From: an uncultured Gammaproteobacteria bacterium
GTDB taxonomy: Bacteria > Cyanobacteriota > Vampirovibrionia > LMEP-6097 > CAYGPN01
Direction of reading: 5' to 3'
DNA: 64,000 nt
NCBI GenBank assembly: GCA_964352085.1
Contig: CAYGPN010000009.1
Coordinates: 44,539 to 108,538 of the forward strand
The notes under the pieces are model-generated. The model did no database searches. It was given only the letters and a program-made list of their open reading frames with translations, and had not been told where the DNA came from. The position numbers and the translations under genes were made by a program. This document shows, one piece after another, positions 7,478-45,032 of the stretch (positions within the stretch are counted from its first letter, which is position 1; every line of letters begins with the position of its first letter).

Positions 7478-8134
7478 TTAACCAATTGTATCTACTGGCT
7501 TATAACCACTTCTTTTAAGATAATCTTTTAGAATATGCTGCACGTAACTGCGCGTTTCTCCAAAAGGTGGAATGCCGCCATATTTTTGTACATTACGTGG
7601 TCCAGCATTATAAGCAGCTAATGCTTTGGGGATATTACCACCAAACATTTTGATCATTTTAGAAATATACTTAGCGCCACCTTTTATGTTCTGGTAAGGG
7701 TTCGCTGGATTAAAAACACCAAGCTCTTTAGCGGTCGCTGGCATAAGTTGCATTAAACCTACAGCGCCTCTATGACTTCTAGCACTAGGGTTAAATTTAG
7801 ATTCCTGTTTAATAATGCTTCGAAGCAAATCAGTGTCTACGCCTTCTTCTTTAGCAACTGTATCTATATATGCGCCAAAATCTTTAGGCAACTTACTCAA
7901 ATCATCTTGAACTTTATCAGTCGCTTTTGCTTGCTGAGTGGATTTGATTATATTTGAAGAAACAGTTTTAAAAACATTTGAAAACCCTGTTTGACCAGGC
8001 TGGCTAGCTGGTCGACTTGTTTTACTAGCACCATGAATCTTACTATCAAGACCATCTAGATAGTTATCTAGATATGCCATTCTCAAATTTACAGATGAAA
8101 AAGTCATCTTGCCCCCTGAAAAAGCTCCCCCCAT
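7478..8134 (-). CDS. Lytic transglycosylase with an SLT domain.
   Basis: SLT catalytic region IIKQESKFNPSARSHRGAVGLMQLMPATAKELG...AYNAGP. Confidence 0.65.
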   Translation of the reverse strand: MGGAFSGGKMTFSSVNLRMAYLDNYLDGLDSKIHGASKTSRPASQPGQTGFSNVFKTVSSNIIKSTQQAKATDKVQDDLSKLPKDFGAYIDTVAKEEGVDTDLLRSIIKQESKFNPSARSHRGAVGLMQLMPATAKELGVFNPANPYQNIKGGAKYISKMIKMFGGNIPKALAAYNAGPRNVQKYGGIPPFGETRSYVQHILKDYLKRSGYKPVDTIG

Positions 8135-8315
8135 TTGACTTGTTAGGTATTAGAGGAGCACCCACTTAATGTAAACTCACCAAAAGGTGCCGTTCTCTAG
8201 CTTTTATCCCAAAATCTATACTGTAATTACTAGTACAAACGCTGTATCTCTCTTATAGCCTGTATTTAAGGCTTTTTCTGGGCTTTTTTATAAGTAAATA
8301 TAGTAGAATTAAGGC

Positions 8316-8513
8316 ATGCTTCCATTTGGACTAGGAATTCCTGAAATTATAGTGATCTTAGTGATCGCACTTCTTATATTTGGACCTAAAAAGCTCCCTG
8401 AGCTTGGAAAAAGCCTAGGCAAAGGGCTTAATAGCTTTAAAAAAGGGCTTTCTGAAGCTGGAGATGAGCTTAAAACTGAGCTGAATAACGATTCTGAAAG
8501 TCCTAAAAACTAA
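8316..8513 (+). CDS. tatA: Twin-arginine translocase subunit TatA/E.
   Basis: [32 protein letters not shown] is the canonical TatA TM-hinge-amphipathic helix; 65 aa. Confidence 0.75.
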
Positions 8514-8565
8514 AACTGAGTCTTTTCATCTAGATCTTTTAAATTAGCTATCAAAACTTATTATC

Positions 8566-9240
8566 TTGAGCACTTATAAGTGCATACACGCAGGCTATAA
8601 AGCGGGGGAGCTTAAAATGACATCAATAAATAACGCTGCTGGCAGCGCTGATACGAACACGCCAAAAACACAAGTAGTAGATCCAGCAGAGGCACAAAGA
8701 CAAGCTGAAAATCAAAAAAAGCAAGAGGCTGCAAAAAAATTAATTAAACTAATTAAGACTGGACAATTAGGTTTCGAGGGCGCTGACCCACTTGGCTCAA
8801 GTTCAGTAAAACTTTTAATAGAAACTGATAACGACAATCTACTTAAATTTCAAAATATTCAAATTGATGCTGACCTTAGTGGCTCAAATATAGTTGAAGC
8901 TAATTTTAAGGGCGCAAATCTTGAAGATGCAAATTTAGAAGAAGTTAATGCAAATAATGCTGATTTTAGTGGCGCCAATCTTCAGGGCACTAATCTAGAT
9001 GAGGCTAAAGTGGCAGGAGCTAAATTTATAGGCGCAAATTTAAAAAACATTGATGCTGCCAATATCGAAATTCCAGGGGCTGATTTTAGTGATTGCGAAC
9101 TTGATGATTCAAACTTAAATGGAAGCAATCTCTCAAAAAGCTCATTTAGATTTGCTAGAGGAAGAAATATCAGACTCAATGATGCTAATTTATCAAATTC
9201 AGATTTAACAGGTATTGATCTTAAGTGGTCCAGGATCTAG
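8566..9240 (+). CDS. Pentapeptide-repeat protein, N-terminal fragment; the frame is disrupted at about 9225-9240.
   Basis: Long run of A(D/N)LxxxNLxxA pentapeptide repeats; terminates at 9240 while the repeat pattern continues in the +1 frame. Confidence 0.5.
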   Translation: MSTYKCIHAGYKAGELKMTSINNAAGSADTNTPKTQVVDPAEAQRQAENQKKQEAAKKLIKLIKTGQLGFEGADPLGSSSVKLLIETDNDNLLKFQNIQIDADLSGSNIVEANFKGANLEDANLEEVNANNADFSGANLQGTNLDEAKVAGAKFIGANLKNIDAANIEIPGADFSDCELDDSNLNGSNLSKSSFRFARGRNIRLNDANLSNSDLTGIDLKWSRI

Positions 9241-10444
9241 TTTACAACGCACAGATCTAAACAAATCAAAACTTAATGGAGCTAACTTTAAAGAAGCTGA
9301 TTTATCAAACACAGAGCTAAGTCATGTTGAAGCAAAAAGGTCAGACTTTAATAAAGCTAAGCTCAATAATGTAAATGCAGCAAAGATAGACTTAACTGAA
9401 GCTGAGCTAAATGAGGCTAGTTTAAAAAAGGCTAAATTAACTGATGCAAACCTAAGTAGAGCTGAGTTTAACAATGCAAATCTAAGTGAAGCCAGTCTAT
9501 ATAAAGCAAAGGCTCTAGCTGCAGAGTTTAATGGCGCAAATCTATTTAAAGCAAACTTAAATGACACAGATTTATCAGAAGCTGAATTTAAAGATGCTAA
9601 TATGCAAAATTCAAGCTTGAACAACAGCATTGTTGAAAATAGTGATTTTAGTGGCGCTAATCTTAGCAAGTCTCAACTATATAATTTGCAAAGTAAAAAA
9701 CCTGTGACTTTCAAAAGAGCAGGCTTATTCAATACTGAGATCGCTGTTAGTGAGACTTCTAAAGAAAGTGTCTTTGATATGAGAGGAGCTAATTTGGCAG
9801 GAGCAACTATTAACTTGGGTCCTAATAATCAAAGAATACACCTAGCCAAACTTGATGGTGCTTCACTTATAAACACTAACTTTGTACACAGACCATTAAA
9901 AGTTTCTCTCAATGGAGCTTACTTAAGAGCCAATAAAGCAAGCAAAGATGCATTAAGATCTCTAATCTCTATTGCTAAAGCAAATAAATCTTTAAGAGCT
10001 ACTCGCATAGTAGTAAAAGATCTAAATGATCCTGTTGCTTCAAGTACTGTAAATCTACCAAACGGTTTTAGCTTTAGTGAAACAGGCGCTATCCCTGTTT
10101 TAGAAACTGACTGGTCAGAGCTTAATCTTATGGGCACAGACTTTAGTGCAGCTGATAATGACGAGTTGATTTATCCACTCAATAACGCAATCGTTAAAGA
10201 CTCACTTTTAAGAAACGCTATTTTCAAAGGTATAAATTTAGCTGAAGCTTTAGACTTATCAAAAATGAGCTTTGCTCCAGATAGCTGGCAAGGAGCTGAT
10301 ATGCGCGGGGCTATCAATGTGCCAGAACAGTTTTTAGAACTTGGGATTATTCATGATGAAAGCACTAAATGGCGAAGGCAGGGTGGTAGCGACAGAGATC
10401 GCAGGCTTCGTGAGCGCGAAGGACATTCTGGTACCTTCCGCTAA
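9215..10444 (+). CDS. Pentapeptide-repeat protein, C-terminal part; probably the same gene as 8566-9240 after a frameshift.
   Basis: The track ORF begins at a TTG inside the end of the previous ORF. The pentapeptide repeat periodicity resumes immediately (TDLNKSKLNGANFKEADLSNTELS…). The C-terminal ~230 aa are non-repetitive. Confidence 0.5.
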   Translation: MILSGPGSSLQRTDLNKSKLNGANFKEADLSNTELSHVEAKRSDFNKAKLNNVNAAKIDLTEAELNEASLKKAKLTDANLSRAEFNNANLSEASLYKAKALAAEFNGANLFKANLNDTDLSEAEFKDANMQNSSLNNSIVENSDFSGANLSKSQLYNLQSKKPVTFKRAGLFNTEIAVSETSKESVFDMRGANLAGATINLGPNNQRIHLAKLDGASLINTNFVHRPLKVSLNGAYLRANKASKDALRSLISIAKANKSLRATRIVVKDLNDPVASSTVNLPNGFSFSETGAIPVLETDWSELNLMGTDFSAADNDELIYPLNNAIVKDSLLRNAIFKGINLAEALDLSKMSFAPDSWQGADMRGAINVPEQFLELGIIHDESTKWRRQGGSDRDRRLREREGHSGTFR

Positions 10445-10490
10445 TGGGGTCAGATCCGGACATCGGACATTTTAAGGAAAAACACTTAAA

Positions 10491-11252
10491 CTACTTTAAA
10501 GCCAAGGCCGCTTCATGCGCGTCATTCTCAAAGCTATCATCTAGCTCAGGAAGCTTTTTATAATCTGGGTACTTGCGTTCCATGGCTCTTAAAATTAGTT
10601 CGTCAGCTAAATGTGGGTTTTTAGGAAGCAAGCTTCCATGCAAATAAGTACCAATCACATTTTTATAAACAGCACCTTCTGTCTCGTCTAGATCATTATT
10701 ACCAAAGCCTTTATTGATAATTGCTAGAGCTGAAATATCTCTGCGTGCCGGCATGGTAAAGAGCGTGCGCCCTGAATGATTTTCAAAACCCACTAAAGTT
10801 TTTCCTTGGAGTCTATCTAATAAACATTCGGCAACTACATTACCAATAAGCCTAGGCTCTTCATCTTTAGGAGCCTTAGTATGCACATCAAGTATTCCTA
10901 AGCCAGGAATGTTTTTTCCTTCGCCAGTCTGATAAAACTCACCAAGCATTTGATAACCACCACAAATCGCAAGTAGCACAGCATTATCTTCAACTACAGC
11001 TTTTAATTCTTCTTTGCGTTTTTTTAAATCTTCAGCAACGCGCTCTTGCTGGGCATCTTGCCCGCCACCTATAAAAAAGATATCGCAGTCAGCAAATTTC
11101 TTATTTGGCTCATCAAGGTCAATATGATCTATCTGAAGATCAATATCACGCCACTCACAACGGCGACTAAGTGTAAGCACATTGCCCTGATCTCCATAAA
11201 TATTTAGGAGCTTTGGATAAAGGTATGCAAGTTTTAGTGAATAATCGCTCAC
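10491..11252 (-). CDS. gatD: GatD-type glutamine amidotransferase (CobB/CobQ-like GATase domain), the glutaminase partner of lipid II isoglutaminyl synthase MurT.
   Basis: Conserved blocks match staphylococcal GatD: CDIFFIGGGQD, ICGGYQMLG, GLGILD, GFENHSGRT, GNNDLDETEGAVYKNVIGTYLHGSLLPKN. Confidence 0.7.
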   Translation of the reverse strand: MSDYSLKLAYLYPKLLNIYGDQGNVLTLSRRCEWRDIDLQIDHIDLDEPNKKFADCDIFFIGGGQDAQQERVAEDLKKRKEELKAVVEDNAVLLAICGGYQMLGEFYQTGEGKNIPGLGILDVHTKAPKDEEPRLIGNVVAECLLDRLQGKTLVGFENHSGRTLFTMPARRDISALAIINKGFGNNDLDETEGAVYKNVIGTYLHGSLLPKNPHLADELILRAMERKYPDYKKLPELDDSFENDAHEAALALK

Positions 11253-11282
11253 TAAAGATAGTATAACCTTTCAAGCTCCCAT

Positions 11283-11618
11283 CTATTCCATGAAAAGATT
11301 TTTAAAAGTATCGTAGTTAGCATCAACTATATCTTCAGTTGCATAAAGTTCATTAAGATCCTTGCCTTCTTTATGAAGATCTCTAAGAGTGCTCACTAGA
11401 TTCTCTCTAATATCAGGAGAATTTTCTATAGTATCAAGCACATTTTCAAACTGAGCCTGCATTTCACCAAAACTCATATCAGCGTAGCTAGATAAAACGC
11501 TGTCATCTTTATCAGCTTCACTAATAAATTTCCTAGCTTTTTTGATTTTGCGTTTTTTAATTAAACTAGCAACAAAGCTATAAGCAAGAAGCTTATTTGC
11601 ATCTTCATGTGATCCCAT
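11283..11618 (-). CDS. Hypothetical 111-aa protein.
   Basis: ORF with coding periodicity, followed downstream by a hairpin terminator at 11742-11766. No motif recognised. Confidence 0.35.
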   Translation of the reverse strand: MGSHEDANKLLAYSFVASLIKKRKIKKARKFISEADKDDSVLSSYADMSFGEMQAQFENVLDTIENSPDIRENLVSTLRDLHKEGKDLNELYATEDIVDANYDTFKNLFME

Positions 11619-11741
11619 TTTTTACCCCACCTGAGTCTCAAACCCTGATATTAAAGTTATCGGTGACTTTCCCTATTAACTAGAGCTAATGTCTCTAGAT
11701 TTAATCTTTCCTTAGATCCCACTCAAATAAAGCAAAAGAAA

Positions 11742-11766
11742 AGCCAAGGACAATGTCCTTGGCTTA
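11742..11766. terminator. Hairpin terminator (aagccaaggaca-atg-tccttggctt).
   Basis: 11-bp near-perfect stem immediately downstream (minus-strand sense) of the FKBP gene at 11796-12314. Confidence 0.5.
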
Positions 11767-11795
11767 ATTAAATAGGTGTTTTCAGCTAATTTTGC

Positions 11796-12314
11796 TTAGT
11801 TTTTAGCTTTAACTTTTTTTGCTTTTTCGATCTTAACAAGCTCAATATCAAAGATCAAATCTTTGCCAGCAAGCATATGGTTAGCATCGATAAAAACTGA
11901 TTTTTCAGTAACTTTAACCACTTTAACTACAACAGCACCACCAGCAGTTTGCATAGTTAGCTTAGAGCCAAGTTCAGCTTCAACTCCTGCAGGAAGCTGA
12001 GTCTTAGGTATTTCAAAAACTTTTGTTTGATCGATTAGTCCATAAGCTTCAGCTGAAGGGATAGTTATAGTCTTTTTCTCTTTTTTAACCATGCCAATTA
12101 TTCCAGCATCAAAACCTTTTATCATTTGACCAGCACCAGCTGTAAAAGTAAGTGGGTCTTTGCCAACGTTAGAATCAAAAACTCTTCCATCTGCTAGTCT
12201 TCCAGTGTAAATAACTGAAACAGAATCGCCGCTCTCAACCAACTTTTTTGCCATAACAGGGGCAAGAGTAGTTAGCATTAGAGCAAGAACTAATAATTTT
12301 GTAATTTTATTCAT
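11796..12314 (-). CDS. FKBP-type peptidyl-prolyl cis-trans isomerase, secreted.
   Basis: Signal peptide, and an FKBP signature FDSNVGKDPLTFTAGAGQMIKGFDAGIIGM...AYG. Second FKBP paralog in the window. Confidence 0.7.
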   Translation of the reverse strand: MNKITKLLVLALMLTTLAPVMAKKLVESGDSVSVIYTGRLADGRVFDSNVGKDPLTFTAGAGQMIKGFDAGIIGMVKKEKKTITIPSAEAYGLIDQTKVFEIPKTQLPAGVEAELGSKLTMQTAGGAVVVKVVKVTEKSVFIDANHMLAGKDLIFDIELVKIEKAKKVKAKN

Positions 12315-12354
12315 AGCTAGTATTGTAGCAATAAATATACGGATTAACTATGAA

Positions 12355-14181
12355 TTAACGAATAACGCCAGCAATATCTGCAACGAATTCTCTAGATATA
12401 GAATCAAAACCAGTAGTATTAATGTATTCAACATTTACTGAATTGGTAGCTTGATTAAGAGTAAGTCTTAAATTAGCTTTTGTAATATCAACCGCCGCGC
12501 CATCAACTAGTGGTGTAGGAGCGCCTATACCAAAATCAACAGTATTGTTTACTAGATTAACTTTAAGCGGGCATGGAGCAAAGTTATTAAACTTAAGTTC
12601 TCTAGCATCTGCGCCAAAAGCAATAGTATGAACTCTGTTTGCTTGAACTGCATCATTCGGATCAATTGTAAACTTATCAGTATTTAAAAGACCTTGATTA
12701 AGAATCACTGAGCCATTAGTACCCATTGCTGTTAACTCGCCGTTATTGTTTGTGATGTTTATATTATTAGGAGGGTTATTTCCACTTGTATCAGAAATTG
12801 TAACGTTGTTAGTAGTCACGTTATTTCCAACTGGAGTAATAGGCTGACCATTAACAATTAGTGTTCCAGGAATAACAACTGTAGGTGCTGGTGGATTACC
12901 GTTTTGACCATCACTACCAAGAACAATTTGATTGTCAGCTGTCGTAGTAGCGCCTGCTCCAATCGCTGTAGAGTTGTCATTCGATGCCGTAGCGCCTGCT
13001 CCAACTGCTGTTGAGCCCGTGCCTGATGCTGTAGCTGCTGAGCCTAGTGCTGTAGAGTTAGTGCCTGACGCTGTTGCACCATTGCCACCTAAAAGAGTAC
13101 TTGTTAAACCAGTACCAGCTCCAACATTAACGCCAGCAACCGACAAAGTTGTTGCCACTGTTGCAGCGCCTGTTGTATCTAAAGTAGTTACTGTTGCAGC
13201 AGCTGGGTTAGTTCCACCAATAACGGTGTTATCGATAGTACCGCCATCAATGTCTGCTGTAGTTGCTGTAAGGCTTGCTGTATTGCTTGATGTTGATGTC
13301 AAAGCACCAGCATTAGTTGTAGTAGCTGTAAGTGTTGTGAAGCTAGCATTAGCTGGAGTGTTTGCACCAATTACAGAATTATCAATACTAACGCCAGTTA
13401 AAGAACCACCTGTGATTGCAACATTAGATGAAGAAATTCCACCAGTAAAAGATGCGCCTGTAATTGCGCCTGTTACAGCAAGGTTACCGCTTGCATTTAA
13501 AGTTTCAGCAACTATTAAAGAACCGTTTACTGTAGTTGTGTTTCCAGCTGTTCCAATTGAGTTTAAATTATCTGCTGTTGTGATGTTTGGCTGAAGAGCA
13601 GCTACAGAAAGGTCTGGAGTCGTTGTACCATTAGTTACTGTAATAGAAGCGTCAGCTGAAGCTACAGAAGTGACTGAACCTCCTCCTCCACCGCCGCCAG
13701 CGTTAGCTTGAAAACTAGGAGCACTAACACCATTAGAAGTAAGAATCTGACCAGCTGTTCCGGGACCCACTAAAACAGGAGCGCCAGTATTATCAAAAGC
13801 AATTATTTGACCAGCTTGAAGAATATTAGTAGCAAAGTCAACTGCTTCAATATTAGTTAAAGCGTTACCAGTACCATTTGCGTCAAATGAAATATTAGTT
13901 AAAGGACCTTGGAAAAGAAAAGGATTACCTTCAAAAGTAAGAACACCATTAGCAGTATCAATAGTACCTAAACCATCAGCAATTGCTGCATCAGGTAATT
14001 GAAATGCTGTAGCCGAAAAACCATCTGGCGCATTTGAATTATCAAGCGTTGTTCCACCTGGTCCAGCAATGTTTTGCTGAAGCGTTGCATTGGCTGGCGC
14101 TGATACTAAAGTCAGTGACAGTATTGTTGACAGCAGAAAGCCACCAAATTTCTTATTTTGATTCTTTTTCATAATATTCAT
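12355..14181 (-). CDS. Secreted fibre/adhesin-like protein with phage tail-fibre-type repeats (GGxIDNxxIG…FTTL) and YadA-head-like NSTAxG repeats.
   Basis: Likely start is MNIMKKNQNKK at 14181 (GGGGAAAGGA RBS), with a signal peptide ending …VSAPANA. The track ORF extends further upstream to 14304. Gly7 run; repeats ITGGSLTGVSIDNSVIGANTPANASFTTL and IDGGTIDNTVIGGTNPAAATVTTL; NSTALGSAATASGTGSTAVGAGATASNDNSTAIGAGA. Confidence 0.55.
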   Translation of the reverse strand: MNIMKKNQNKKFGGFLLSTILSLTLVSAPANATLQQNIAGPGGTTLDNSNAPDGFSATAFQLPDAAIADGLGTIDTANGVLTFEGNPFLFQGPLTNISFDANGTGNALTNIEAVDFATNILQAGQIIAFDNTGAPVLVGPGTAGQILTSNGVSAPSFQANAGGGGGGGSVTSVASADASITVTNGTTTPDLSVAALQPNITTADNLNSIGTAGNTTTVNGSLIVAETLNASGNLAVTGAITGASFTGGISSSNVAITGGSLTGVSIDNSVIGANTPANASFTTLTATTTNAGALTSTSSNTASLTATTADIDGGTIDNTVIGGTNPAAATVTTLDTTGAATVATTLSVAGVNVGAGTGLTSTLLGGNGATASGTNSTALGSAATASGTGSTAVGAGATASNDNSTAIGAGATTTADNQIVLGSDGQNGNPPAPTVVIPGTLIVNGQPITPVGNNVTTNNVTISDTSGNNPPNNINITNNNGELTAMGTNGSVILNQGLLNTDKFTIDPNDAVQANRVHTIAFGADARELKFNNFAPCPLKVNLVNNTVDFGIGAPTPLVDGAAVDITKANLRLTLNQATNSVNVEYINTTGFDSISREFVADIAGVIR

Positions 14182-14230
14182 TTTCCTTTCCCCGTTATTC
14201 ATTCGATTTCTCCCCCTCACATTTAACTGT

Positions 14231-15652
14231 CTATTGAAGGACCTCCGTGCTGTAAACAGCAACTGGTGATTGTGGTGTAAACACTCCTGGGAATGATTCA
14301 ACATTAACTAAATTAAGAACACCATTTGCTATAAAAACTCTAAGAAGCATATCTTGAACTAAAAGTGATGTTCCAAGAGATGTTGGAGCTGTATTTAAGT
14401 TTGTTACTTGAGCTGTTAGAGGCAATTTAACATTAACCGGATTTCCGTTAGTATCTAATCCAATGATTAATTGCTCGTTGTTTAAAAGAACACCATTAGT
14501 AATAGTGATTCTTCTAGCAATTGCATTTGCACCATTGATGTTATTCAATGGAGTATTGAAAGCAACTGGATTAGTGTTAAGTGCTAAAGATTGTGTTTCG
14601 TTGTTTGTAACTGGATTATTATTTCCACCACCAGCAATTACACAATCACCAACATCTAAAGTACCGTTCCCATTCTGATCAGTAATTCCAGGAGCATCAA
14701 AACAATTTGCACCAGCTGCACCAGGAGCGCCTGTACCACCACTAGGACCAGCAGGACCAGGAGTTCCAGCACCACCAGAACCGCCGCCGCCTGTTACTAA
14801 AAGTGTTAAAGCTGCTTCAGAATTACTAGTGTTACCAAAAACTTGATTTGTGTCTGTTGCAAAGTAAATTGTTCCAGGAGCTACAGTCGCCGGTCTTTGT
14901 GCTGCTGTACCTGAAAGGAAATTTGTGCCACCTGTTGGATTAACTATTTCATTTTGAACGTTAATTACTCTACCTCTTAGCTTACTTGTTGTATTTTTAC
15001 CAGTAGCCTTAAAGTGAATATCAAATCTAGATCCTTCATCAGTCATTCTTGGAACAACACCATTAAATTTTGAAGGCACCATAGCCATCATCAAATGGTT
15101 AGGAAGTTTTCTAGCTATCTCGATGATCTGCTCATCGTTAAAATTATTTGTAAGTGCTGGACCACTAACATCAGAAACTGAAAGGTTACCATCTGGGAAA
15201 AATGTACCTGTAAAGCGTTCAACTGTTTTTCCGTTTTCACCAAGTAGAGTGAATTCATATTGGTTGCCAGACTGTCTTAGCCCCTTGAGAAGACCTCTAA
15301 CAACAATGTTATTTTTCTTAGAAGCTTTTACTGAAAAATCACCAACATTAATTTTAGAACCGTCATCCAAAATTTCTTTTACTTCAACAACAGGAACACT
15401 ATTTTCTGGAAGTCTAAGATTTTTTGCTCTTCTGATAACAAACTTTACTTGAGCTTCATCAGTACCATTAGCCTTTACAATGTTGTCTCTACCAACAAAT
15501 TGAAGTAAAACTCTTTGATCGTCCGGCACGCCGTTATTAGTTTGTAAGCCTTGAATACCTAGATCGATTACTCTTCTTGCAGAAGCTGGGCTAATTGCTA
15601 GGCCTGCGATGAGCGTGAAACTTAGAATTATAGATTGGAACTTTTTAAACAT
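14231..15652 (-). CDS. Secreted protein with a collagen-like Gly-X-Y segment and one Cys-bracketed DxNGNG calcium-binding-like motif.
   Basis: Signal peptide MFKKFQSIILSFTLIAGLAISPASA; GGGGSGGAGTPGPAGPSGGTGAPGAAGA followed by CFDAPGITDQNGNGTLDVGDC. Confidence 0.55.
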   Translation of the reverse strand: MFKKFQSIILSFTLIAGLAISPASARRVIDLGIQGLQTNNGVPDDQRVLLQFVGRDNIVKANGTDEAQVKFVIRRAKNLRLPENSVPVVEVKEILDDGSKINVGDFSVKASKKNNIVVRGLLKGLRQSGNQYEFTLLGENGKTVERFTGTFFPDGNLSVSDVSGPALTNNFNDEQIIEIARKLPNHLMMAMVPSKFNGVVPRMTDEGSRFDIHFKATGKNTTSKLRGRVINVQNEIVNPTGGTNFLSGTAAQRPATVAPGTIYFATDTNQVFGNTSNSEAALTLLVTGGGGSGGAGTPGPAGPSGGTGAPGAAGANCFDAPGITDQNGNGTLDVGDCVIAGGGNNNPVTNNETQSLALNTNPVAFNTPLNNINGANAIARRITITNGVLLNNEQLIIGLDTNGNPVNVKLPLTAQVTNLNTAPTSLGTSLLVQDMLLRVFIANGVLNLVNVESFPGVFTPQSPVAVYSTEVLQ

Positions 15653-15862: not shown

Positions 15863-16912
15863 TTATTTACCAAAGACATCCCAACTAAAAGTTAGCGGTC
15901 CTGCAAAAACAGGGCTATATCCAGGCTGATTATCAGCCAATCTTTGTAAAACAAATCTATACTGACCGCCACCTAAATCTTCAACACCATAAAGAATATT
16001 TCCATTAGTGTTCGGTACTACTCCTAAAGTTGTTGTTGGGTCACCACCCGTAGCATTTTGGAAGCCAACATTTATAGATTTATTTGGGAAGTTAAACCTA
16101 AACTGCGGAGAGGTATTATCTGAGACAGCATACTCTAAAGTTTTACCTGCAAGCGCGCCAGCTGGAAACGACAAAGCTGTTGTAGTATTCACTTCTCTTA
16201 AAACTGGGTTGGTTGGGTCTGCTTCAGCTGGCATCACAAGCTCAACTGTTGCTATGTAGCGAGAACCAACTTGATCAAATGTAGCTGCTTCACCAGAGGC
16301 AGTTGCATCTCCAAGACCAGTAAGCTTATTAGAACCCATAACAATATTACCGCCCATAGTAAGTCCTGTTAAAGTACCCACGCTAGTTATATTTGGCTGA
16401 GCTGCTGTTTGAACAGTACCTGTTAAATCACCAATAAAGCTTGTTGCTGTAGCTGTGCCAGTCGTTACAAAATTTCCATCTGAATTAATTGCTCCTATAT
16501 TTAATTCACCAGCAGGTCCCCTTTGAGGAACAGTATTTGGTTGATTGGCAAATACACCAGTAGCTACAGCATTACCATTTACACTTAAAACACCAGATGT
16601 TGTGATATTTAAATTTGTTGTATTAATGTCTAAATTACCAGCAGCATTCTTAGAGAATGTAATAGGGTTTGCGCTATCTTCACCAATTTGTAAAAGTGGT
16701 TCAATCGGCACAATTGCATTTGGGTTACCAACTAAAACAAATCTTTTACCTGTTGAAACATCAGTGGTATCTTGCTCACCTGCTTTATAGAACTGAATGA
16801 AAGTAGCATGAGCTGGCATTGCAGTCATAAAGATTGCAAAAACAAATAATAAAGAAGCTAGAGCTCTAGCGAGTCCTTTTTTCATATTTAGTTTTTCTTC
16901 TCTTCTTATCAT
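15863..16912 (-). CDS. Secreted phage tail-fibre-like protein.
   Basis: Signal peptide …MPAHA. Motif GSNKLTGLGDATASGEAATFDQV matches the conserved tail-fibre collar motif (SNKxTxLxxGTxxxDAVNxxQL type). Thr/Gly/Asn-rich beta-rich sequence. Confidence 0.55.
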   Translation of the reverse strand: MIRREEKLNMKKGLARALASLLFVFAIFMTAMPAHATFIQFYKAGEQDTTDVSTGKRFVLVGNPNAIVPIEPLLQIGEDSANPITFSKNAAGNLDINTTNLNITTSGVLSVNGNAVATGVFANQPNTVPQRGPAGELNIGAINSDGNFVTTGTATATSFIGDLTGTVQTAAQPNITSVGTLTGLTMGGNIVMGSNKLTGLGDATASGEAATFDQVGSRYIATVELVMPAEADPTNPVLREVNTTTALSFPAGALAGKTLEYAVSDNTSPQFRFNFPNKSINVGFQNATGGDPTTTLGVVPNTNGNILYGVEDLGGGQYRFVLQRLADNQPGYSPVFAGPLTFSWDVFGK

Positions 16913-16922
16913 CCATTCAACC

Positions 16923-19025
16923 TTATGGTAAGTAACTTAAATTCAGGACATGTATGTAGAAACCTAAGCCTAAATCTAATCCTCTAAAGACAATCACATC
17001 TGAGCCTGTATCCTTATAGAAAGCCAAGCCCATATTAGTAAAGTTTGGCGCTGCAGAGCTTGCGTTACCAGCTGCAAAGACTGGCGAGCCTGTGTACTGG
17101 AAGCCTGTAATATCGCCTGTTCCATTAAAGAATATAGTCAAGTTTTGGAATGGCACAGTATTATCATTTATAACAACTCTTGTAACATTCACAGCGGCTA
17201 TCATCGGTGCTAGCGCTAATGTAGCTGGAGTATTTGCTCCTGTTGCAGGTATATTAACAATCTCAGTAGTTAAAGTAGTGTTTGATTCATTATTATCTGT
17301 TGGTCCTGAACAACCTGGATCTAATAAATCAACTAAAGTATCACCATCATTATCTAAAAGATCACTACACTGAGGACTAGACTCTGATGGGTCAGTAGGT
17401 CCACTACATCCCGGATCTACTAAATCAATAGCGCCATTACCATCATTATCAGCTCCATCCTGACACTGTTTAAATTCATTATCATTAGCATTTGCGCAGC
17501 CAGTATCAGCAGGGAAATCAACTAAACCATCAGCGTCATTATCAATACCATCCTGACATTGGTTTACAACATTAAATTCATTATTATCTGATGGTCCCGT
17601 GCAACCCGGATCAGCAGTATCTATTAAACCATCTCCATCATTATCTATTCCATCACTACATGCGGGATTCGGTGGCTCAAACTCAGAGTTGTCATTAGCA
17701 CTTGTACAACCATTATCAGCAGGAAAATCTATCAAACCATCTCCATCATTATCAGCACTATCGCTACATTCAGGCAGTGGATTAAACTCATCATTATCTG
17801 TAGCACTTGAGCATCCTGTATCAAGAGGAAAATCAATTAGGCCATCTCCATCATTATCAACAGTATCTTGGCAAGCAGGAAGAACAGAAGTACCAGGATC
17901 ACCTGCTGGTCCTGCTGGTCCTGCTGGTCCAGAAGCGCCACCTTGGCTCATTAACACATGCTCCCAAGAACCATCTGCTTCTAGTTTTCTACTAAAATAA
18001 ACATCGGTGTCTTGCCCTTGAGCGAAAATTGCAGCACTTAGAGCGCTAGTTCCTGTTAAAGAACTTGAACTTAAACTTGTGATCAATGGATCATCAAAAT
18101 TATCTGGACTTCCACCTCTACTAACAACAGTAATAAAACCATTACCTTCAGCAGTTGTTCTATAAATATCACGATCAAGTGGAGTACCAACTCCAAGTAT
18201 GCTTGTACCTTGAATTATTGTGCTGCCCTCTCCAGTGTTAACTACAAGCTTTCCTTTTTTCAAAGACTTGATTAACCTTTTTTTATTTGGAATGTCAAAG
18301 AAAACACCATCAGGATTTCTTGGGTTAATAGAAACACCAGGAGTCTTTGAAGTTCTCAGCATTAAGTTTGGATCGCGCCATAAACTATCTCTAAACTTTC
18401 TAAAAAGAGTGCTTTCTTCTGTCGTCATATCAGCAACAGTTGGCGGCAACTCAAGTTCACTAATCATTGGAACACTATCCTCTATTACTCTTTTTGCAGC
18501 CATAGCAGGGAGCTCAAATTTAAATTTCTCTCCTCTCTCTCCAATCAAATAAAGATTCATAGCTTCTTCTTGTTGATCGTAAGGAATCGGGATACGGAAA
18601 GTAACTCTTTTTGCAACAGGTCCATTTTTACCTTTATCTGCTTTTCTAATTGGAATCGGGAAAGTGACTTTAAATCTAAATTCTTCTTTTATCGAACCAT
18701 CAATTTGTGGCACAGGCTCGTAGCCCATCGCATTCACATAAGTTCTTGTCGTTGCATTTTCTGGACCTACTAAACCATTAAGGTCTACTTGAAGAGGGAC
18801 TACTGCTACATTGGTTGAACTAACAAAAGTTCTTTCAACATCTTTGCGTCGTAACTTAACTCGAGGCTGCGACAAAGAGCCAGTGTCATCACCATCAGAA
18901 GATTGAATGGTGACGAACCTCGAGGCCTTTGTTGCCGCAAAAACTTCTTCGCCAGTGAAAAAATTCACTAGACATATAATGATTAGTGCTGCAAGTATGC
19001 GGTGCACAAGTTTAGACATTGTCAC
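16923..19025 (-). CDS. Secreted 700-aa protein with a collagen-like GPAGPAGPAGDPG segment followed by seven Cys-bracketed CxDxxDNDGDGLIDFPxDxGC repeats resembling thrombospondin type-3 calcium-binding repeats.
   Basis: Signal/TM N-terminus. Repeats ACQDTVDNDGDGLIDFPLDTGC, ECSDSADNDGDGLIDFPADNGC, ACSDGIDNDGDGLIDTADPGC, QCQDGIDNDADGLVDFPADTGC, QCQDGADNDGNGAIDLVDPGC, QCSDLLDNDGDTLVDLLDPGC and more. First gene of the minus-strand cluster. Confidence 0.55.
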   Translation of the reverse strand: MTMSKLVHRILAALIIICLVNFFTGEEVFAATKASRFVTIQSSDGDDTGSLSQPRVKLRRKDVERTFVSSTNVAVVPLQVDLNGLVGPENATTRTYVNAMGYEPVPQIDGSIKEEFRFKVTFPIPIRKADKGKNGPVAKRVTFRIPIPYDQQEEAMNLYLIGERGEKFKFELPAMAAKRVIEDSVPMISELELPPTVADMTTEESTLFRKFRDSLWRDPNLMLRTSKTPGVSINPRNPDGVFFDIPNKKRLIKSLKKGKLVVNTGEGSTIIQGTSILGVGTPLDRDIYRTTAEGNGFITVVSRGGSPDNFDDPLITSLSSSSLTGTSALSAAIFAQGQDTDVYFSRKLEADGSWEHVLMSQGGASGPAGPAGPAGDPGTSVLPACQDTVDNDGDGLIDFPLDTGCSSATDNDEFNPLPECSDSADNDGDGLIDFPADNGCTSANDNSEFEPPNPACSDGIDNDGDGLIDTADPGCTGPSDNNEFNVVNQCQDGIDNDADGLVDFPADTGCANANDNEFKQCQDGADNDGNGAIDLVDPGCSGPTDPSESSPQCSDLLDNDGDTLVDLLDPGCSGPTDNNESNTTLTTEIVNIPATGANTPATLALAPMIAAVNVTRVVINDNTVPFQNLTIFFNGTGDITGFQYTGSPVFAAGNASSAAPNFTNMGLAFYKDTGSDVIVFRGLDLGLGFYIHVLNLSYLP

Positions 19026-25375: not shown

Positions 25376-26533
25376 TTATAAAACAGTAGCTAGCCTAGAC
25401 CAATGGCTAGTTTGAACATTATCAGAAATTTGAAAGGCTTCTTCCTTATTACAAAGCAAATAAGCTTTGGAATCTGGCTTAAGCTTCACAAAAGCCTCTA
25501 AAGATTTTCCATATTCTTTTTTTGGTGTTGCTGTGAGTTTCACTTCTGTTGCTATCACTTGCCCTTTATACTCAATTATAAAATCAACCTCTAAACCATT
25601 ATTGTCTCTAAAAAAATATATGCTTGGTTTTTTTCCTTGATGGTTAAAGAACTTAACAAGCTCACTTAAAACCAATCCCTCAAAAAGAGCTCCAGACATT
25701 GGTCCTTTTTGTATTTGCTCTTCACTTGCGTGCCCTGTAAGATGGCTTACTATTCCTGGATCCAAGAAATATAATTTTTGAGATTTCACTATACGCTTAC
25801 CTAAATTATTATGGTATGGAGGCACCAGATAAATTAATTGGCTTTTTTCTAATAAGGCAATCCAAGACTGAACTGTTAATTTGCTTACACCAAGCTCTTT
25901 TGATAGAGAAGCAAAATTCAATTCCTGAGAACTTCTTAGAGCTATTAATTTTATAAACTGGTCATAAACTTTTATATGCTCTTTTTTTATATTTGCTCTT
26001 ATATCCTTATTTAAAATTGTGTCAATGTAAGAATCAAACCATAATGTTCTATCCATTTCTTTAATATTAGGTTCTGGATACAATCCTTTAAGTACGATTT
26101 TAGACCAAAGTGGCACTTCTTTTGAATACAATTCTTGAACAGAGAAAGGATTTAAAGATAGAACAGCCATGCGCCCAGCAAGGCTTTCATGAACATCAGC
26201 CATTAGGTTAAATTGCTGCGATCCAGTAAGAACAAAAGCTCCTTCTTTTTGCTCATTATCAACTTTCTTTTTTATATATGAAAGTAAGTCAGGGGCGTTT
26301 TGAATTTCATCTATAATAAGCGGGCATTCATTATATTTTAAAAACAAGTCGGGGTCTTCATTTGCTTGCCTGCGTGTTTCTATATCATCCAAGCTCACAT
26401 AGTTATATTCTGGCAATATCGCTTTTAAAAGCGTAGATTTGCCAGACTGCCTAGCACCAGTTAATAAAATCACTTTAAACTGAGCGATTGCTTTTTTGAG
26501 AATATTTGAAAGATCTCTCTTAAAATATGGCAC
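25376..26533 (-). CDS. AAA+ ATPase of the COG1373/DUF4143 type with a C-terminal PD-(D/E)xK-like segment (paralog 1).
   Basis: Walker A TGARQSGKST, Walker B LIIDEIQ, and C-terminal …GLEVDFIIEYKGQVIATEVK. Confidence 0.6.
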   Translation of the reverse strand: MPYFKRDLSNILKKAIAQFKVILLTGARQSGKSTLLKAILPEYNYVSLDDIETRRQANEDPDLFLKYNECPLIIDEIQNAPDLLSYIKKKVDNEQKEGAFVLTGSQQFNLMADVHESLAGRMAVLSLNPFSVQELYSKEVPLWSKIVLKGLYPEPNIKEMDRTLWFDSYIDTILNKDIRANIKKEHIKVYDQFIKLIALRSSQELNFASLSKELGVSKLTVQSWIALLEKSQLIYLVPPYHNNLGKRIVKSQKLYFLDPGIVSHLTGHASEEQIQKGPMSGALFEGLVLSELVKFFNHQGKKPSIYFFRDNNGLEVDFIIEYKGQVIATEVKLTATPKKEYGKSLEAFVKLKPDSKAYLLCNKEEAFQISDNVQTSHWSRLATVL

Positions 26534-32582: not shown

Positions 32583-33713
32583 ATGCATATAAACCGGGCT
32601 CTTAAAGTAGAGATAATCAGCAAGCTTAAAGATAGTAATAAAATAATCATCTTATATGGCCCCAGACAGATTGGTAAGACCACCCTGGCTAACAGGGTCA
32701 TTGAGGATCTTGGTTTTAGAACCTTAAGCATTAATGCTGATGAGCTTAAATATAATGAGATTCTTTCCAGTCGCGATTTAACTAAGCTCAAATCTTTAGT
32801 AAGCGGTTATGAATTGCTTTTTATAGATGAGGCACAAAGAATAAAAGATATAGGCATTAACCTAAAAATCCTTAAGGATAATTTAGCTGATTTGAAAATT
32901 ATAGTCACAGGTTCCTCAACTTTAGATTTAGCAAATGAACTAAAAGAACCTTTAACAGGAAGAACCTGGACCTATAATCTTTATCCAATATCTTTCCTTG
33001 AGTTGAAAGAGCATTTTAATGACTTTGAACTAAAAGAACAGCTAGAAGAGAAAATGATCTTCGGTCTTTACCCTGAGCTTTTTAGTATCGAAAACAGAGA
33101 AGAAAAAATTCAATATCTTGAAGAAATCAGCAGGTCTTATTTATATAAAGATGTCTTGGAGATTTCAAATATTAAGCATTCTTATAAGCTTAGAGATCTT
33201 CTTAAGTTGCTAGCTTTTCAGATAGGCTCAGAAGTCTCTCTCAATGAGCTTGGCAGACAATTAGATATGTCTAAAGAAACAGTAGCTAATTACATTAATC
33301 TTCTTGAGAAATCTTTTGTACTTTATAGATTGAGTGGTTTGAGCCGTAATCTTAGAAAAGAAGTCTCTAAAATGGATAAGATTTATTTTTATGATCTTGG
33401 TATAAGAAACATTCTTATAGATAATATGAAAGATCTTAAAGATAGAGATGATAAAGGAAAGCTTTTTGAGAATTTCTTAGTTATAGAACGTTTAAAACGA
33501 AATAAATACACAGCAAATTACTGTTCAGAGTATTTCTGGAGAATATATACTGGCGCTGAATTGGATTATGTAGAAGATAAAGATGGCAAATTTTCTGCTT
33601 ATGAATTTAAGTTTGCTAAAGAAAAAGCTAAAGTACCACAATCATGGCAAGAGGCTTATTCGGGTTCTTTTGAGCTTATTAATAAGGATAACTTCTTAGA
33701 ATTTATTCGCTAA
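32583..33713 (+). CDS. AAA+ ATPase of the COG1373/DUF4143 type with a C-terminal PD-(D/E)xK-like segment (paralog 2).
   Basis: Walker A YGPRQIGKTT, Walker B LLFIDEAQ, and C-terminal GAELDYVEDKDGKFSAYEFK. Confidence 0.6.
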   Translation: MHINRALKVEIISKLKDSNKIIILYGPRQIGKTTLANRVIEDLGFRTLSINADELKYNEILSSRDLTKLKSLVSGYELLFIDEAQRIKDIGINLKILKDNLADLKIIVTGSSTLDLANELKEPLTGRTWTYNLYPISFLELKEHFNDFELKEQLEEKMIFGLYPELFSIENREEKIQYLEEISRSYLYKDVLEISNIKHSYKLRDLLKLLAFQIGSEVSLNELGRQLDMSKETVANYINLLEKSFVLYRLSGLSRNLRKEVSKMDKIYFYDLGIRNILIDNMKDLKDRDDKGKLFENFLVIERLKRNKYTANYCSEYFWRIYTGAELDYVEDKDGKFSAYEFKFAKEKAKVPQSWQEAYSGSFELINKDNFLEFIR

Positions 33714-41737: not shown

Positions 41738-43312
41738 TTAAAAAACTTCTAAAATAATCTGACTATCTATAAAACCACTATCAGTGTCTGTTGCAGTCAC
41801 AGTGATTTGAGCTCCTTCAGTTAAAAAGTCAGGAAATTCATCAAGGAAATCACTAAGAGGCGCAAATGTGGCAGTAATTTTTTTATATAATTTACGTTTG
41901 CCTATTTTAAAACTCTCTTTATTAAAGCTAATTAAATCCGGAGAGCTTGAGCTAAGACTTAGTCTCACTGTTTTCTTTTTAAATGGTTTAATTTTAGTAA
42001 ATTTAATTTTAGAAGTCACTTCATCAAAATCACCAACTAGAGTTGAGTTATTTACTGCTTTGCCGCTAGCTTTAAAACTTCTTTTAATTGCATCAGGGTC
42101 AGTACCTGGCATCCCACCATTAGTAGCACCACCCAAGTTAATAGTTGTTAGTTGTCCAGCATTAATAGTTATTTGCTGAGCGTTATTAAGAGCGTCTTCT
42201 AAGCTGACATCTAAAAGAGCCTCACCTGTTCCATTAAAAAATCCAGTAGTAAAAGAACTAGGATTTTTAGGTGGAGCTACAGGACCTACTGAAGATGCAC
42301 CTGTAAATTCGCTAAAGATTGGCTCAACTTTTAAAATATAGTTGCCAGGAGGCAAGCCTGGGATTATAAATTCAGCGTTTCCAGTTGTAAAGAGATCTAC
42401 AACGCTAGAAACAGCCAGAGCAGTGTTATCTACATTAAAAGCAATTACATTACCGCCAGTTAAAGCATTACTGTTAGAATCTCTAGCTTCGCCTCTAAGT
42501 GTTCCAAACTCTGTCATAAAATCAGTTTCGGCGTAAGCAGCTGGGGAAGAAACAGAAACAACATCATCTAGAAGTAGAGTGAAACCTGGATTTGCAAGAA
42601 TGGGAAACATGATTGGTATGTTTGATAAGTTCGAGGGTTGACCATTACGTCTTTTTAAAAACTCCTCTAAGAAAACTTGAGTGTGGTCTAAGCCAATTGC
42701 ATGTCCAAATTCGTGAAGAACAGTTGATTTAAAATTATTTGTATTTGTAACAGAAGTCTCACCAAAAAGATTAGATAAGGTAAAAAGAAAACCATTAAAA
42801 GCTGCTTGTGACTCGACTATTATTTCTGAACTTGGTGATATGAAAGTCGGTCCAGCAAAGCCAAGCACACTTGCCTTAGACCCTTGACCAAAGAAGCTTT
42901 CGAAGATCTCCCCATCATCATCAAAAACTATAGGTGTAAAACCTAAAGTACCATTAGGTGAAAGAATGGACTGGAAATTAGTTTCATTAATATCAGAGCT
43001 CAAAGTACCTTGATTTAGAAAATTGATTTTAGAAGTTTCCACATTATTCCAAGTAGCTAGAATATCGTTTGTAAGCATTTGCGGGTTGACAAGGTCGCCT
43101 AAAGGACCTTGATCGTTTCTATAAAGTACATTAACAACTGTGCCGCTGCTTGGGAAAGTGGGATAGAACTTTTGAGAGTCTGAACAATTTGAACCTCCAT
43201 TTGGGCAGGCTGCTAAAAGTCCAGCAGCTTTTGCTTCGCTCACAAAATTAGCAAAGGACAAAACAAATATAAGGAAAGCTAAAAATCTTAGCGATAAGGG
43301 CTTGAGGAGCAT
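41738..43312 (-). CDS. Secreted zinc metalloprotease of the metzincin type (HExxHxxGxxH plus Met-turn).
   Basis: Signal peptide; HEFGHAIGLDHTQ and a downstream IMFPIL Met-turn. Paralogous to 43322-44533. Confidence 0.6.
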   Translation of the reverse strand: MLLKPLSLRFLAFLIFVLSFANFVSEAKAAGLLAACPNGGSNCSDSQKFYPTFPSSGTVVNVLYRNDQGPLGDLVNPQMLTNDILATWNNVETSKINFLNQGTLSSDINETNFQSILSPNGTLGFTPIVFDDDGEIFESFFGQGSKASVLGFAGPTFISPSSEIIVESQAAFNGFLFTLSNLFGETSVTNTNNFKSTVLHEFGHAIGLDHTQVFLEEFLKRRNGQPSNLSNIPIMFPILANPGFTLLLDDVVSVSSPAAYAETDFMTEFGTLRGEARDSNSNALTGGNVIAFNVDNTALAVSSVVDLFTTGNAEFIIPGLPPGNYILKVEPIFSEFTGASSVGPVAPPKNPSSFTTGFFNGTGEALLDVSLEDALNNAQQITINAGQLTTINLGGATNGGMPGTDPDAIKRSFKASGKAVNNSTLVGDFDEVTSKIKFTKIKPFKKKTVRLSLSSSSPDLISFNKESFKIGKRKLYKKITATFAPLSDFLDEFPDFLTEGAQITVTATDTDSGFIDSQIILEVF

Positions 43313-44533: not shown

Positions 44534-45032
44534 TATTTGTTTCTTGAATTTTTTTTGGAATTAATCTGGATTTGGCATTGCCATAGCTCATCCTTAATAT
44601 ATATTCCCTTCCTGTAATAGAGTCTTGGATTTCTATATGCCTTCCAAAGCCTAGCTTAATGTCTTTGATGATAAGCCTTTCAGTGAGTTTGTCGCCTTTG
44701 TTATAGGCTACAGGGATGATAAACATATCGCCAGCTCTTAGGCTGTTTGATCTAGCTATAGCTGCTTTAACTGTGCCTTGTGATCTGAAAATAGATTTTA
44801 CGTAAAATTCTGTTTCTTCGGGCATTATGCTCTTATCTACTAAAGTGTAATAAACAGGTTTTGTATTTGTAGTTTCTTCTTCGATTTTTTCTTCACTAGC
44901 TTTTTTCTCTTCAACTTGTTTTTCTTCAAGTTTTTGAGCAGCTTCTTCTTTTATTTCTTCTGCAAAAGCAAAAGTGCTCGCATTAAATACGATTAAAAAA
45001 CTTATTAAAAGAAGTGCTGATTTCTTCATCAC
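44523..45032 (-). CDS. Small secreted Glu/Lys-rich protein, co-oriented immediately upstream of the protease pair.
   Basis: Signal peptide MMKKSALLLISFLIVFNASTFAFA, an acidic linker and a C-terminal ~90-aa domain. Overlaps the next gene by 11 bp. Confidence 0.4.
   Translation of the reverse strand: MMKKSALLLISFLIVFNASTFAFAEEIKEEAAQKLEEKQVEEKKASEEKIEEETTNTKPVYYTLVDKSIMPEETEFYVKSIFRSQGTVKAAIARSNSLRAGDMFIIPVAYNKGDKLTERLIIKDIKLGFGRHIEIQDSITGREYILRMSYGNAKSRLIPKKIQETNNET

Follow-up and report, generated by a model that had tools for sequence, protein, structure and literature searches.

In the present study, we analyzed a stretch of 64,000 nucleotides (nt) from an uncultured Gammaproteobacteria bacterium (placed by GTDB in Cyanobacteriota; Vampirovibrionia; LMEP-6097; CAYGPN01), which corresponds to positions 44,539 to 108,538 of contig CAYGPN010000009.1 in assembly GCA_964352085.1 and is hereafter called the window. 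On its minus strand, positions 16923-19025 hold a gene for a secreted protein of 700 amino acids (aa), with a GTG start and the stop codon at 16923-16925; translation from an ATG at codon 3 yields the form of 698 aa present in public assemblies. The preliminary description of this locus had named a frame error as one finding that would undo it. The open reading frame (ORF) is uninterrupted in the ORF list and the identical 698-aa product is encoded on contigs of three independent sequencing runs, and, therefore, a frameshift or assembly artifact is unlikely. The gene heads a four-gene, minus-strand cluster of secreted fiber-like proteins, and its product is made up of a signal peptide, an N-terminal region, a short collagen-like Gly-X-Y run, an array of cysteine-bracketed acidic repeats, and a C-terminal domain. 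The array is the main subject of this study; its units, judged by their sequences, are homologous to the core of the C-rich domain of the teneurins.

The array spans aa 385-584 (nt 17274-17873) and consists of six tandem units starting at aa 385, 420, 456, 490, 521, and 553, each of which combines a loop of 20-21 residues, counted from cysteine to cysteine, with an acidic tail of 10-15 residues, resulting in a period of 31-36 aa. The loops of units 1, 2, and 4 have 21 residues and read C-x-D-x-x-D-N-D-G-D-G-L-I-D-F-P-x-D-x-G-C, while those of units 3, 5, and 6 have 20 residues and end in D-x-x-D-P-G-C. The tail is conserved after the closing cysteine as x4-D-x-x-E (Asp at +5 and Glu at +8) and contains D-N-x-E. 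Following the protein along the minus strand, the loops and tails are those of unit 1 (aa 385-419, nt 17769-17873, CQDTVDNDGDGLIDFPLDTGC SSATDNDEFNPLPE, 54.9 bits against the unit profile described below), unit 2 (aa 420-455, nt 17661-17768, CSDSADNDGDGLIDFPADNGC TSANDNSEFEPPNPA, 50.6 bits), unit 3 (aa 456-489, nt 17559-17660, CSDGIDNDGDGLIDTADPGC TGPSDNNEFNVVNQ, 49.4 bits), unit 4 (aa 490-520, nt 17466-17558, CQDGIDNDADGLVDFPADTGC ANANDNEFKQ, 48.3 bits), unit 5 (aa 521-552, nt 17370-17465, CQDGADNDGNGAIDLVDPGC SGPTDPSESSPQ, 43.3 bits), in which ligand position 10 is Asn, and unit 6 (aa 553-584, nt 17274-17369, CSDLLDNDGDTLVDLLDPGC SGPTDNNESNTT, 43.1 bits). Among the 200 residues of the array, there are 42 Asp, 50 Asp and Glu taken together, and a single Lys or Arg. 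The protein has 13 cysteines, one of which (C18) lies in the signal peptide, while the other 12 are the loop-closing pairs of the six units.

A unit profile was built from 126 units, 120 of which came from other proteins, and the six-frame translation of the window was scanned with it, all filters being disabled. The scan returned six hits of 43-55 bits in the ORF of interest and nothing above 2.6 bits in the rest of the 64 kb, showing that the repeat is far beyond chance, and a seventh unit was excluded by the same scan. The preliminary description, which had reported seven repeats of approximately 25 aa within 17250-17950, was accordingly right about the motif and its location, since the units and the Gly-X-Y run (nt 17892-17939) both fall inside this interval, and about the cysteine pair that closes every unit, but needs to be corrected to six units with a longer period. 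The count of the cysteine spacing that it had called for, and the Asp spacing on which it had made the repeats depend, also came out favorably: the loops keep to 20-21 residues and the ligand Asp residues align, the Asn of unit 5 being the sole change. The units share 62-80% DNA identity over their first 45 nt; they have diverged in DNA with the motif preserved and are, therefore, ancient duplications that selection on the motif has maintained.

Regarding family membership, the protein matched the NCBIfam model NF033662 (acid_disulf_rpt, "acidic double-disulfide repeat-containing protein") in six stretches with 111.3 bits and an E-value of 1.2e-32 (cut-off 41), and unit 3 scanned alone reached 39.2 bits over positions 7-28 of the 32 in the model. 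All five of the homologs and orthologs that were scanned also matched. The array has in common with NF033662 a period of approximately 32 aa, an acidic composition, and a cysteine-bracketed loop. While the name of the model implies two disulfides, and hence four cysteines, per repeat, the units described herein have exactly two cysteines and, therefore, at most one internal disulfide each; in the alignment they extend over approximately positions 7-28, whereas the multi-cysteine core of teneurin-2 extends over positions 5-32. The repeat family is already curated by NCBI and is very common, and the present protein is one more member of it. A literature search on the family name yielded no publication, and no study of the bacterial repeat appeared in the searches made for other points.

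The preliminary description had regarded the units as calcium-binding loops of the thrombospondin (TSP) type-3, EF-hand, or Excalibur kind. The calcium-binding part of that view is upheld by the matches to NF033662 and to teneurin and by the ligands that have been kept, whereas membership in these three families is not. Pfam gave no match for the whole protein at E≤1 or for the array alone at E≤10, and TSP_3 (PF02412), Excalibur, EF-hand, Dockerin_1, MopE (PF11617), and Collagen are all among the models without a match. The resemblance to TSP type-3 repeats, as they occur in the "wire" of TSP-1 and COMP and in bacterial TSP3-type proteins such as MtsC, lies in tandem Asp-rich, disulfide-stabilized loops with the signature DxDxDGxxD that lack secondary structure and wrap around Ca2+; however, the cysteine framework of the units is not the same, and no thrombospondin or COMP chain was present among the top 60 PDB hits of the profile. 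The resemblance to EF-hands is that of DNDGDGLIDFP in the units to loop 2 of calmodulin (DADGDGTIDFP), and calmodulin appeared in the PDB searches with weak E-values of 0.004-0.3, but the loops have no flanking helices in the AlphaFold2 model. As negative controls, calmodulin and a type-3 segment of TSP-1, the sequence of which is approximate, were scanned against NCBIfam. Calmodulin matched EF-hand-type and lanmodulin-type families and the approximate TSP-1 segment matched bacterial TSP3-type models, and neither matched NF033662.

In contrast to these controls, the cores of the teneurin C-rich domains were recognized by NF033662: that of teneurin-2 with an E-value of 1.4e-8 and 34.4 bits, and the 23-residue core of teneurin-4 with an E-value of 4.4e-8. 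Since the model matches the present protein and the teneurin cores, but not the controls, the bacterial repeat and the teneurin core form one sequence family that is distinct from TSP type-3 repeats and EF-hands. In a phmmer search of PDB sequences with the whole protein, teneurin-2 (6cmx, E=2.9e-4) and the 49-residue C-rich domain of teneurin-4 (7plp, E=6.6e-3) came out on top, followed by the EF-hand loops of calmodulin, and the unit profile ranked 7plp first (E=0.029, over the whole loop and both cysteines with one gap) and fly teneurin-m second.

The teneurin-4 C-rich domain, which as a whole resembles no known fold, has been solved at 1.5 Å with three Ca2+ (7PLP; Meijer et al., PMC9058538). 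Side chains of E835, D840, D843, N844, D845, D847, D851, D854, and D856 take part in the coordination of these ions, together with the main-chain carbonyls of residues A837, K842, and L849. Two of the sites (I and II) are similar to TSP type-3 repeats, and site III is similar to LDL-receptor class A modules; the domain has three disulfides (C838-C857, C852-C863, and C858-C869), and Ca2+ stabilizes the protein and its compact dimer (PMC9058538). In our alignment, the first and closing cysteines of a unit correspond to C838 and C857, and D3, D6, N7, D8, D10, D14, and D17/18 correspond to D840, D843, N844, D845, D847, D851, and D854, respectively. These in-loop ligands are kept in all six units with the one exception of D847, which is replaced by Asn in unit 5. 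The teneurin core motif C-x-D-x-x-D-N-D-G-D-G-L-V-D-x-x-D-P-x-C is matched by the units, and its cysteine spacing of 20 residues is exact in units 3, 5, and 6 and is one residue longer, owing to an insertion, in units 1, 2, and 4; unit 3, with the same loop length as teneurin, aligns to residues 11-33 of 7plp. At other positions the units depart from teneurin-4: position 15 is Phe, Thr, or Leu in place of C852, Gly stands in place of D856, and no acidic residue is present at -3, the place of E835. The contexts of the two are also different. The teneurin domain (human teneurin-4 residues 834-871; PDB 7PLP, 6CMX, and 8FIA) is a single copy with six cysteines and a conotoxin-like C-terminal half, and it belongs to a eukaryotic type II membrane protein, in which its neighbors are EGF8 and the TTR domain, whereas the present array has six tandem copies with one disulfide each, according to our reading, and an additional conserved D-x-x-E tail that has no counterpart in teneurin.

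This relationship bears on the history of the teneurins. Tucker et al. (2012; PMC3278476) aligned the teneurin core with PF11617 ("Cu-binding_MopE") and proposed a diatom or algal enzyme as its source, and the origin of the C-rich domain was either described as algal or diatom or left undiscussed in the teneurin literature that we examined. In view of the match to NF033662, it is plausible that the metazoan C-rich domain, like the YD shell, came from bacteria, and the match provides a concrete lead on the provenance of the one part of the teneurin ectodomain still regarded as "non-bacterial".

The module is by no means confined to this locus. In a search of 5.8 billion protein clusters, in which 8,000 candidates were scored, it was present at E≤0.001 in at least 2,707 proteins, nearly all of which matched the array alone (approximately 29% of the query). 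The architecture, which had been considered unusual, is therefore not so, its repeat module being widely shared and already curated by NCBI. Named sources include Myxococcota, Patescibacteria, Tahibacter, and Rhodanobacteraceae, and the domains combined with the module include M36 or S8 peptidases, DUF11, He_PIG Ig-like, Calx-beta, and Stig1-like domains, in addition to others. It also occurs on nine contigs of viral collections, including L006 (2329-5214) and L007 (2632-4227) of IMG/VR and L008 and L013 from giant-virus metagenome-assembled genomes (MAGs). In two of the viral ORFs, 2-3 units connect an N-terminal domain with a C-terminal part; as judged by eye, the latter resembles a beta-helix and, in L007, the former is FnIII-like. 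A tblastn search with the array against 50,697 phage genomes returned no match. Pfam lacks a model for this module, which is spread over diverse bacteria and some viral contigs.

Unit statistics were obtained from the 120 best homolog hits. Exactly two cysteines were found in 1,425 of 1,446 units, and loops of 21 residues (971 units) and 20 residues (424 units) predominated. The Asp three residues ahead of the closing cysteine was present in 1,341 of 1,417 units, and the tail residues Asp +5 and Glu +8 in 1,202 and 1,365 of these, respectively. Position 15 was aromatic or aliphatic and never Cys. The positions of the teneurin ligands and both cysteines were the most conserved across the 1,417 units, a result that was partly constrained by the search pattern. 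The number of copies ranged between 6 and 19 among the listed homologs. A hydrophobic and basic tail resembling a sorting signal followed the array in 23 of the 120, and the arrays of these proteins lie between an enzyme or Ig-like domain and that C-terminal tail; in one homolog, an M36 peptidase is followed by 16 units and then by a MYXO-CTERM signal.

A structural model of aa 360-700 was prepared with AlphaFold2 from an alignment of 85 sequences. Residues 380-579 were modeled with a predicted local distance difference test (pLDDT) score of 80-93, with no strands and with helical turns of only 3 residues, and this model fits loops wrapped around Ca2+. By analogy with teneurin-4, the units are very probably Ca2+-binding loops with one disulfide each. 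The two cysteines of a unit would form a single loop-closing disulfide, as they do in the teneurin-4 structure, and the conserved Asp and Asn side chains, together with backbone carbonyls, would hold two Ca2+ in a geometry similar to that of TSP type-3 repeats. Asp +5 and Glu +8 of the tail may supply a further, third Ca2+ site or a bridge between neighboring units. The solved teneurin-4 domain may thus be used as a template, which predicts that a unit binds 2-3 Ca2+, has one conserved disulfide, and depends on Ca2+ for its stability; six units would then bind roughly 12-18 Ca2+ per chain.

On these grounds, the reading of the array that we consider to be the best, and in which we have moderate confidence, is that of a Ca2+-loaded, disulfide-stapled spacer. 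The array would form a compact, rigid, and strongly anionic segment without regular secondary structure that keeps the flanking domains apart and holds them out into the oxidizing, Ca2+-containing extracellular space, and its integrity would depend on Ca2+ and on oxidizing conditions. The role of a spacer is supported by the variable copy number and by the placement of arrays between domains and sorting signals or beta-helix-like parts. An unannotated 700-aa ORF of a low-GC bacterium may, therefore, be described as encoding a secreted and probably Ca2+-dependent modular protein.

Several points weigh against this reading. The E-values of the direct PDB comparisons are marginal because the motif has only approximately 20 residues. 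Among the teneurin disulfides, the units retain only the pair 1-3, with the pairs 2-5 and 4-6 missing, and the site-III ligands E835 and D856 are absent. No cell-anchoring signal was found in the protein, and five Gly-X-Y triplets are too few to form a stable triple helix on their own. Furthermore, a spacer and an active binding role are indistinguishable by sequence.

The last of these points leads to the possibility that the repeats are themselves an adhesive surface, binding directly to a partner such as a polysaccharide, a protein that belongs to another cell, or the surface of a mineral. The array is the sole part of the protein that is conserved beyond the immediate lineage, many homologs consist mostly of array, with up to 19 units straight after the signal peptide, and the C-rich domain of teneurin-4 helps to form a Ca2+-dependent protein-protein interface (PMC9058538). 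However, the exposed non-ligand positions 2, 4, 5, 9, and 12 are highly variable, which is unusual for a specific site, the copy number is very plastic, and the module is paired with many unrelated catalytic and Ig-like domains that are able to provide specificity. We regard an adhesive function as rather unlikely on balance.

The same teneurin interface, which is part of a Ca2+-stabilized dimer (PMC9058538), and the conserved co-encoding of four secreted proteins may also be taken to indicate a Ca2+-dependent assembly or oligomerization module that follows the logic of dockerins and links the proteins of the cluster, either mutually or to a shared base. This is improbable because the repeat is present in only one of the four proteins, no cohesin-like partner and no match to the dockerin or EF-hand families was found, and the model has no helices flanking the loops.

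A different metal, such as copper or lanthanides, is a far weaker candidate for the ligand of the loops. All-oxygen acidic sites are also able to bind lanthanides, and the calmodulin control matched lanmodulin-type models; copper is brought in by the alignment of the teneurin core with the MopE family (PMC3278476). On the other hand, PF11617 does not match the present protein, the ligand set provides oxygen alone (Asp/Asn), without any His, Met, or free Cys, and the homologous solved structure holds Ca2+ (PMC9058538), which makes this alternative highly improbable. The notion of a compositional or low-complexity artifact without a fold, suggested by the extreme Asp/Asn/Gly richness of the segment and the lack of predicted regular secondary structure, is effectively refuted by position-specific conservation over 1,417 units with a strict cysteine pair in each, together with the high pLDDT, the match to a curated hidden Markov model (HMM), and the retention of the motif in diverged DNA.

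The regions that flank the array are of a different nature. The signal peptide (approximately aa 1-30, nt 18936-19025, minus strand; MTMSKLVHRILAALIIICLVNFFTGEEVFA followed by ATKA) has, when its sequence is read by eye, a basic n-region, a hydrophobic core, and an A-x-A-like cleavage site and lacks a lipobox, and the protein is, therefore, predicted to be exported through it. The N-terminal region (aa 31-362, nt 17940-18935, minus strand) is lineage-specific. When 1.84 billion representatives were searched exhaustively with HMMER, it was found in four proteins in total, namely, the protein itself, P0009 (715 aa), P0121 (596 aa), and P0122 (a fragment of 243 aa), and a scan of the genome contigs with this domain found no relative. 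Its AlphaFold2 model has a pLDDT of 62 overall and 65-83 in the first approximately 145 residues, and the low-confidence domain model gave only weak, generic beta-sandwich matches in Foldseek, all with E>1e-3, which suggests that the region opens with a generic beta-sandwich. The C-terminal domain (aa 585-700, nt 16926-17273, minus strand) is predicted to be beta-rich, has no family match, and is poorly predicted by AlphaFold2 (pLDDT of 39-64). The N- and C-terminal parts joined into one query retrieved only the protein itself, and both flanking domains are near-orphans. A PHROGs scan of the protein also gave no match.

A collagen-like segment in front of the repeats, as claimed in the preliminary description, is indeed present at aa 363-378 (GAS GPA GPA GPA GDP G; nt 17892-17939, minus strand), but it has just five triplets (aa 363-377) and does not adjoin the repeats immediately, since six residues (TSVLPA) precede the first loop cysteine. 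The sole repeat detected by Tandem Repeats Finder was the 9-bp (GPA)3 element at 17902-17930 with 3.2 copies, and the run did not match the Pfam Collagen model (PF01391). P0009 is a full-length ortholog with 36% identity over 95% coverage, and the architecture common to the present protein, P0009, and P0121 comprises the N-terminal region, a Trp-containing hairpin-like motif, the Gly-X-Y run, the units, and a C-terminal domain of approximately 115 aa. Between these three full-length proteins, the number of triplets is 5, approximately 11, and approximately 10, and the number of units is 6, 6, and 3, respectively.

A motif of the form (I/V)(Y/F)(F/Y)-x-x-D-T-x-x-(V/F)(Y/F), followed by G-x-W, lies directly before the Gly-X-Y run at aa 323-362 (nt ~17940-18059), and also at aa 246-295 of the 473-aa protein encoded by the third gene of the cluster and in both sets of orthologs. 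It may resemble the motifs that precede collagen-like segments in phage tail-fiber proteins.

The cluster continues downstream with three genes on the minus strand. Gene 2 (15863-16912) encodes a secreted protein of 349 aa with a phage-tail-fiber-like segment (aa 140-194; phrog_6942 "tail fiber protein", E=1.2e-8), and a homolog with 34% identity over 227 aa occupies the same position in L005. In two other samples, the 698-aa protein is identical, but the next gene (L002, 4416-5438; L003, 2931-3953) encodes 340 aa rather than 349 aa and the intergenic spacing differs, which suggests strain-level variation in the tail-fiber-like neighbor.

Gene 3 (14231-15652, minus strand) encodes a secreted protein of 473 aa in which a Gly-X-Y run is followed by one cysteine-bracketed loop. 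This loop, CFDAPGITDQNGNGTLDVGDC (aa 317-337, nt 14642-14704), stands right after the Gly-X-Y run and had been considered a related unit in the preliminary description; the loop exists and its position is equivalent, but it is not demonstrably the same repeat, as neither the repeat profile nor NF033662 matched it even at permissive thresholds, and it was rejected as a genuine unit. Other parts of the two proteins show a weak similarity. Residues 323-398 of the 700-aa protein, in the pre-collagen region, match residues 246-333 of the 473-aa protein in BLASTP (E=1e-5), the C-terminal domains of the two families align weakly in hhalign over 65 columns (65% probability, P=6e-5), and a part of the N-terminal region aligns with P=1e-3, with the hits being collinear. 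The 473-aa neighbor is, therefore, a probable distant paralog, and no paralogy between the 700-aa protein and its 349-aa and 649-aa neighbors was detectable.

Gene 4 (12355-14202, minus strand) encodes a secreted protein of 615 aa with YadA-head repeats (Pfam YadA_head, E=3.2e-11) but without the YadA anchor, and the L005 homolog is 50% identical to it over 222 aa. The ORF as called mechanically has 649 aa (12355-14304, minus strand) and shares 74 nt with the end of the upstream gene, whereas the call in L001 starts at Met35 (nt 14202); additional in-frame Met codons are present just ahead of the signal peptide.

All four genes of the cluster have homologs in the same order in L005, where the three downstream genes occupy 7723-12572. 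The cluster is flanked on one side by genes for a 147-aa membrane protein, ribosomal protein S1, folate synthesis, NAD kinase, and FtsJ, and on the other side by that for FKBP, and the same synteny was observed around P0009 and P0121 on two related contigs. These housekeeping flanks and their synteny indicate that the locus is chromosomal, and a prophage origin of the cluster was ruled out on the same basis.

Since the gene with the array is the first in this conserved cluster of secreted fiber-like proteins, its product is most likely a component of a surface fiber or adhesin set, and the "surface fibre" and "stalk" of the preliminary description remain putative. A functional analogy, but not more, is found in the mosaic adhesive trimer (MAT) fibers of the Bdellovibrio surface (PMC10769870), which also involve several co-existing secreted proteins with phage-tail-fiber-like segments and varied C-terminal domains; they differ in being trimeric beta-prisms or beta-helices rather than acidic disulfide loops. 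A bolder proposal is that the four genes form an undescribed set of surface fibers with a Ca2+-switchable stalk in an uncultivated bacterial lineage and that, at the same time, the bacterial family, and not the diatom or algal enzyme put forward in 2012, is the source of the teneurin C-rich domain. Such a stalk would be rigid and extended with Ca2+ and collapsed without it, echoing the switch of teneurin-4 between compact and extended forms. We consider the combined proposal to be quite unlikely as it stands.

Other features of the window were noted in passing. The product of 61271-62851 (minus strand) belongs to the Cpn60/TCP-1 family and is not GroEL; among named proteins, the "TCP-1/cpn60" entries of Firmicutes MAGs (approximately 31-34% identity) and archaeal thermosomes (approximately 28%) are the closest to it. 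A scan of the genome contigs with it found no relative, and its sequence suggests a bacterial group II/III-like chaperonin of a poorly sampled lineage. Four large ORFs had no Pfam match at E≤1e-5, namely, 51148-54648 (1166 aa), 54751-56502 (583 aa), and 49665-51161 (498 aa), which are consecutive on the plus strand, and 41738-43312 (524 aa) on the minus strand. A stretch of 35 kb contains three paralogous genes for AAA_14/DUF4143 ATPases, at 25376-26533 (minus strand), 32583-33713 (plus strand), and 58663-59877 (plus strand), and two adjacent, slightly overlapping ORFs on the plus strand, at 8566-9240 and 9215-10444, encode pentapeptide repeats.

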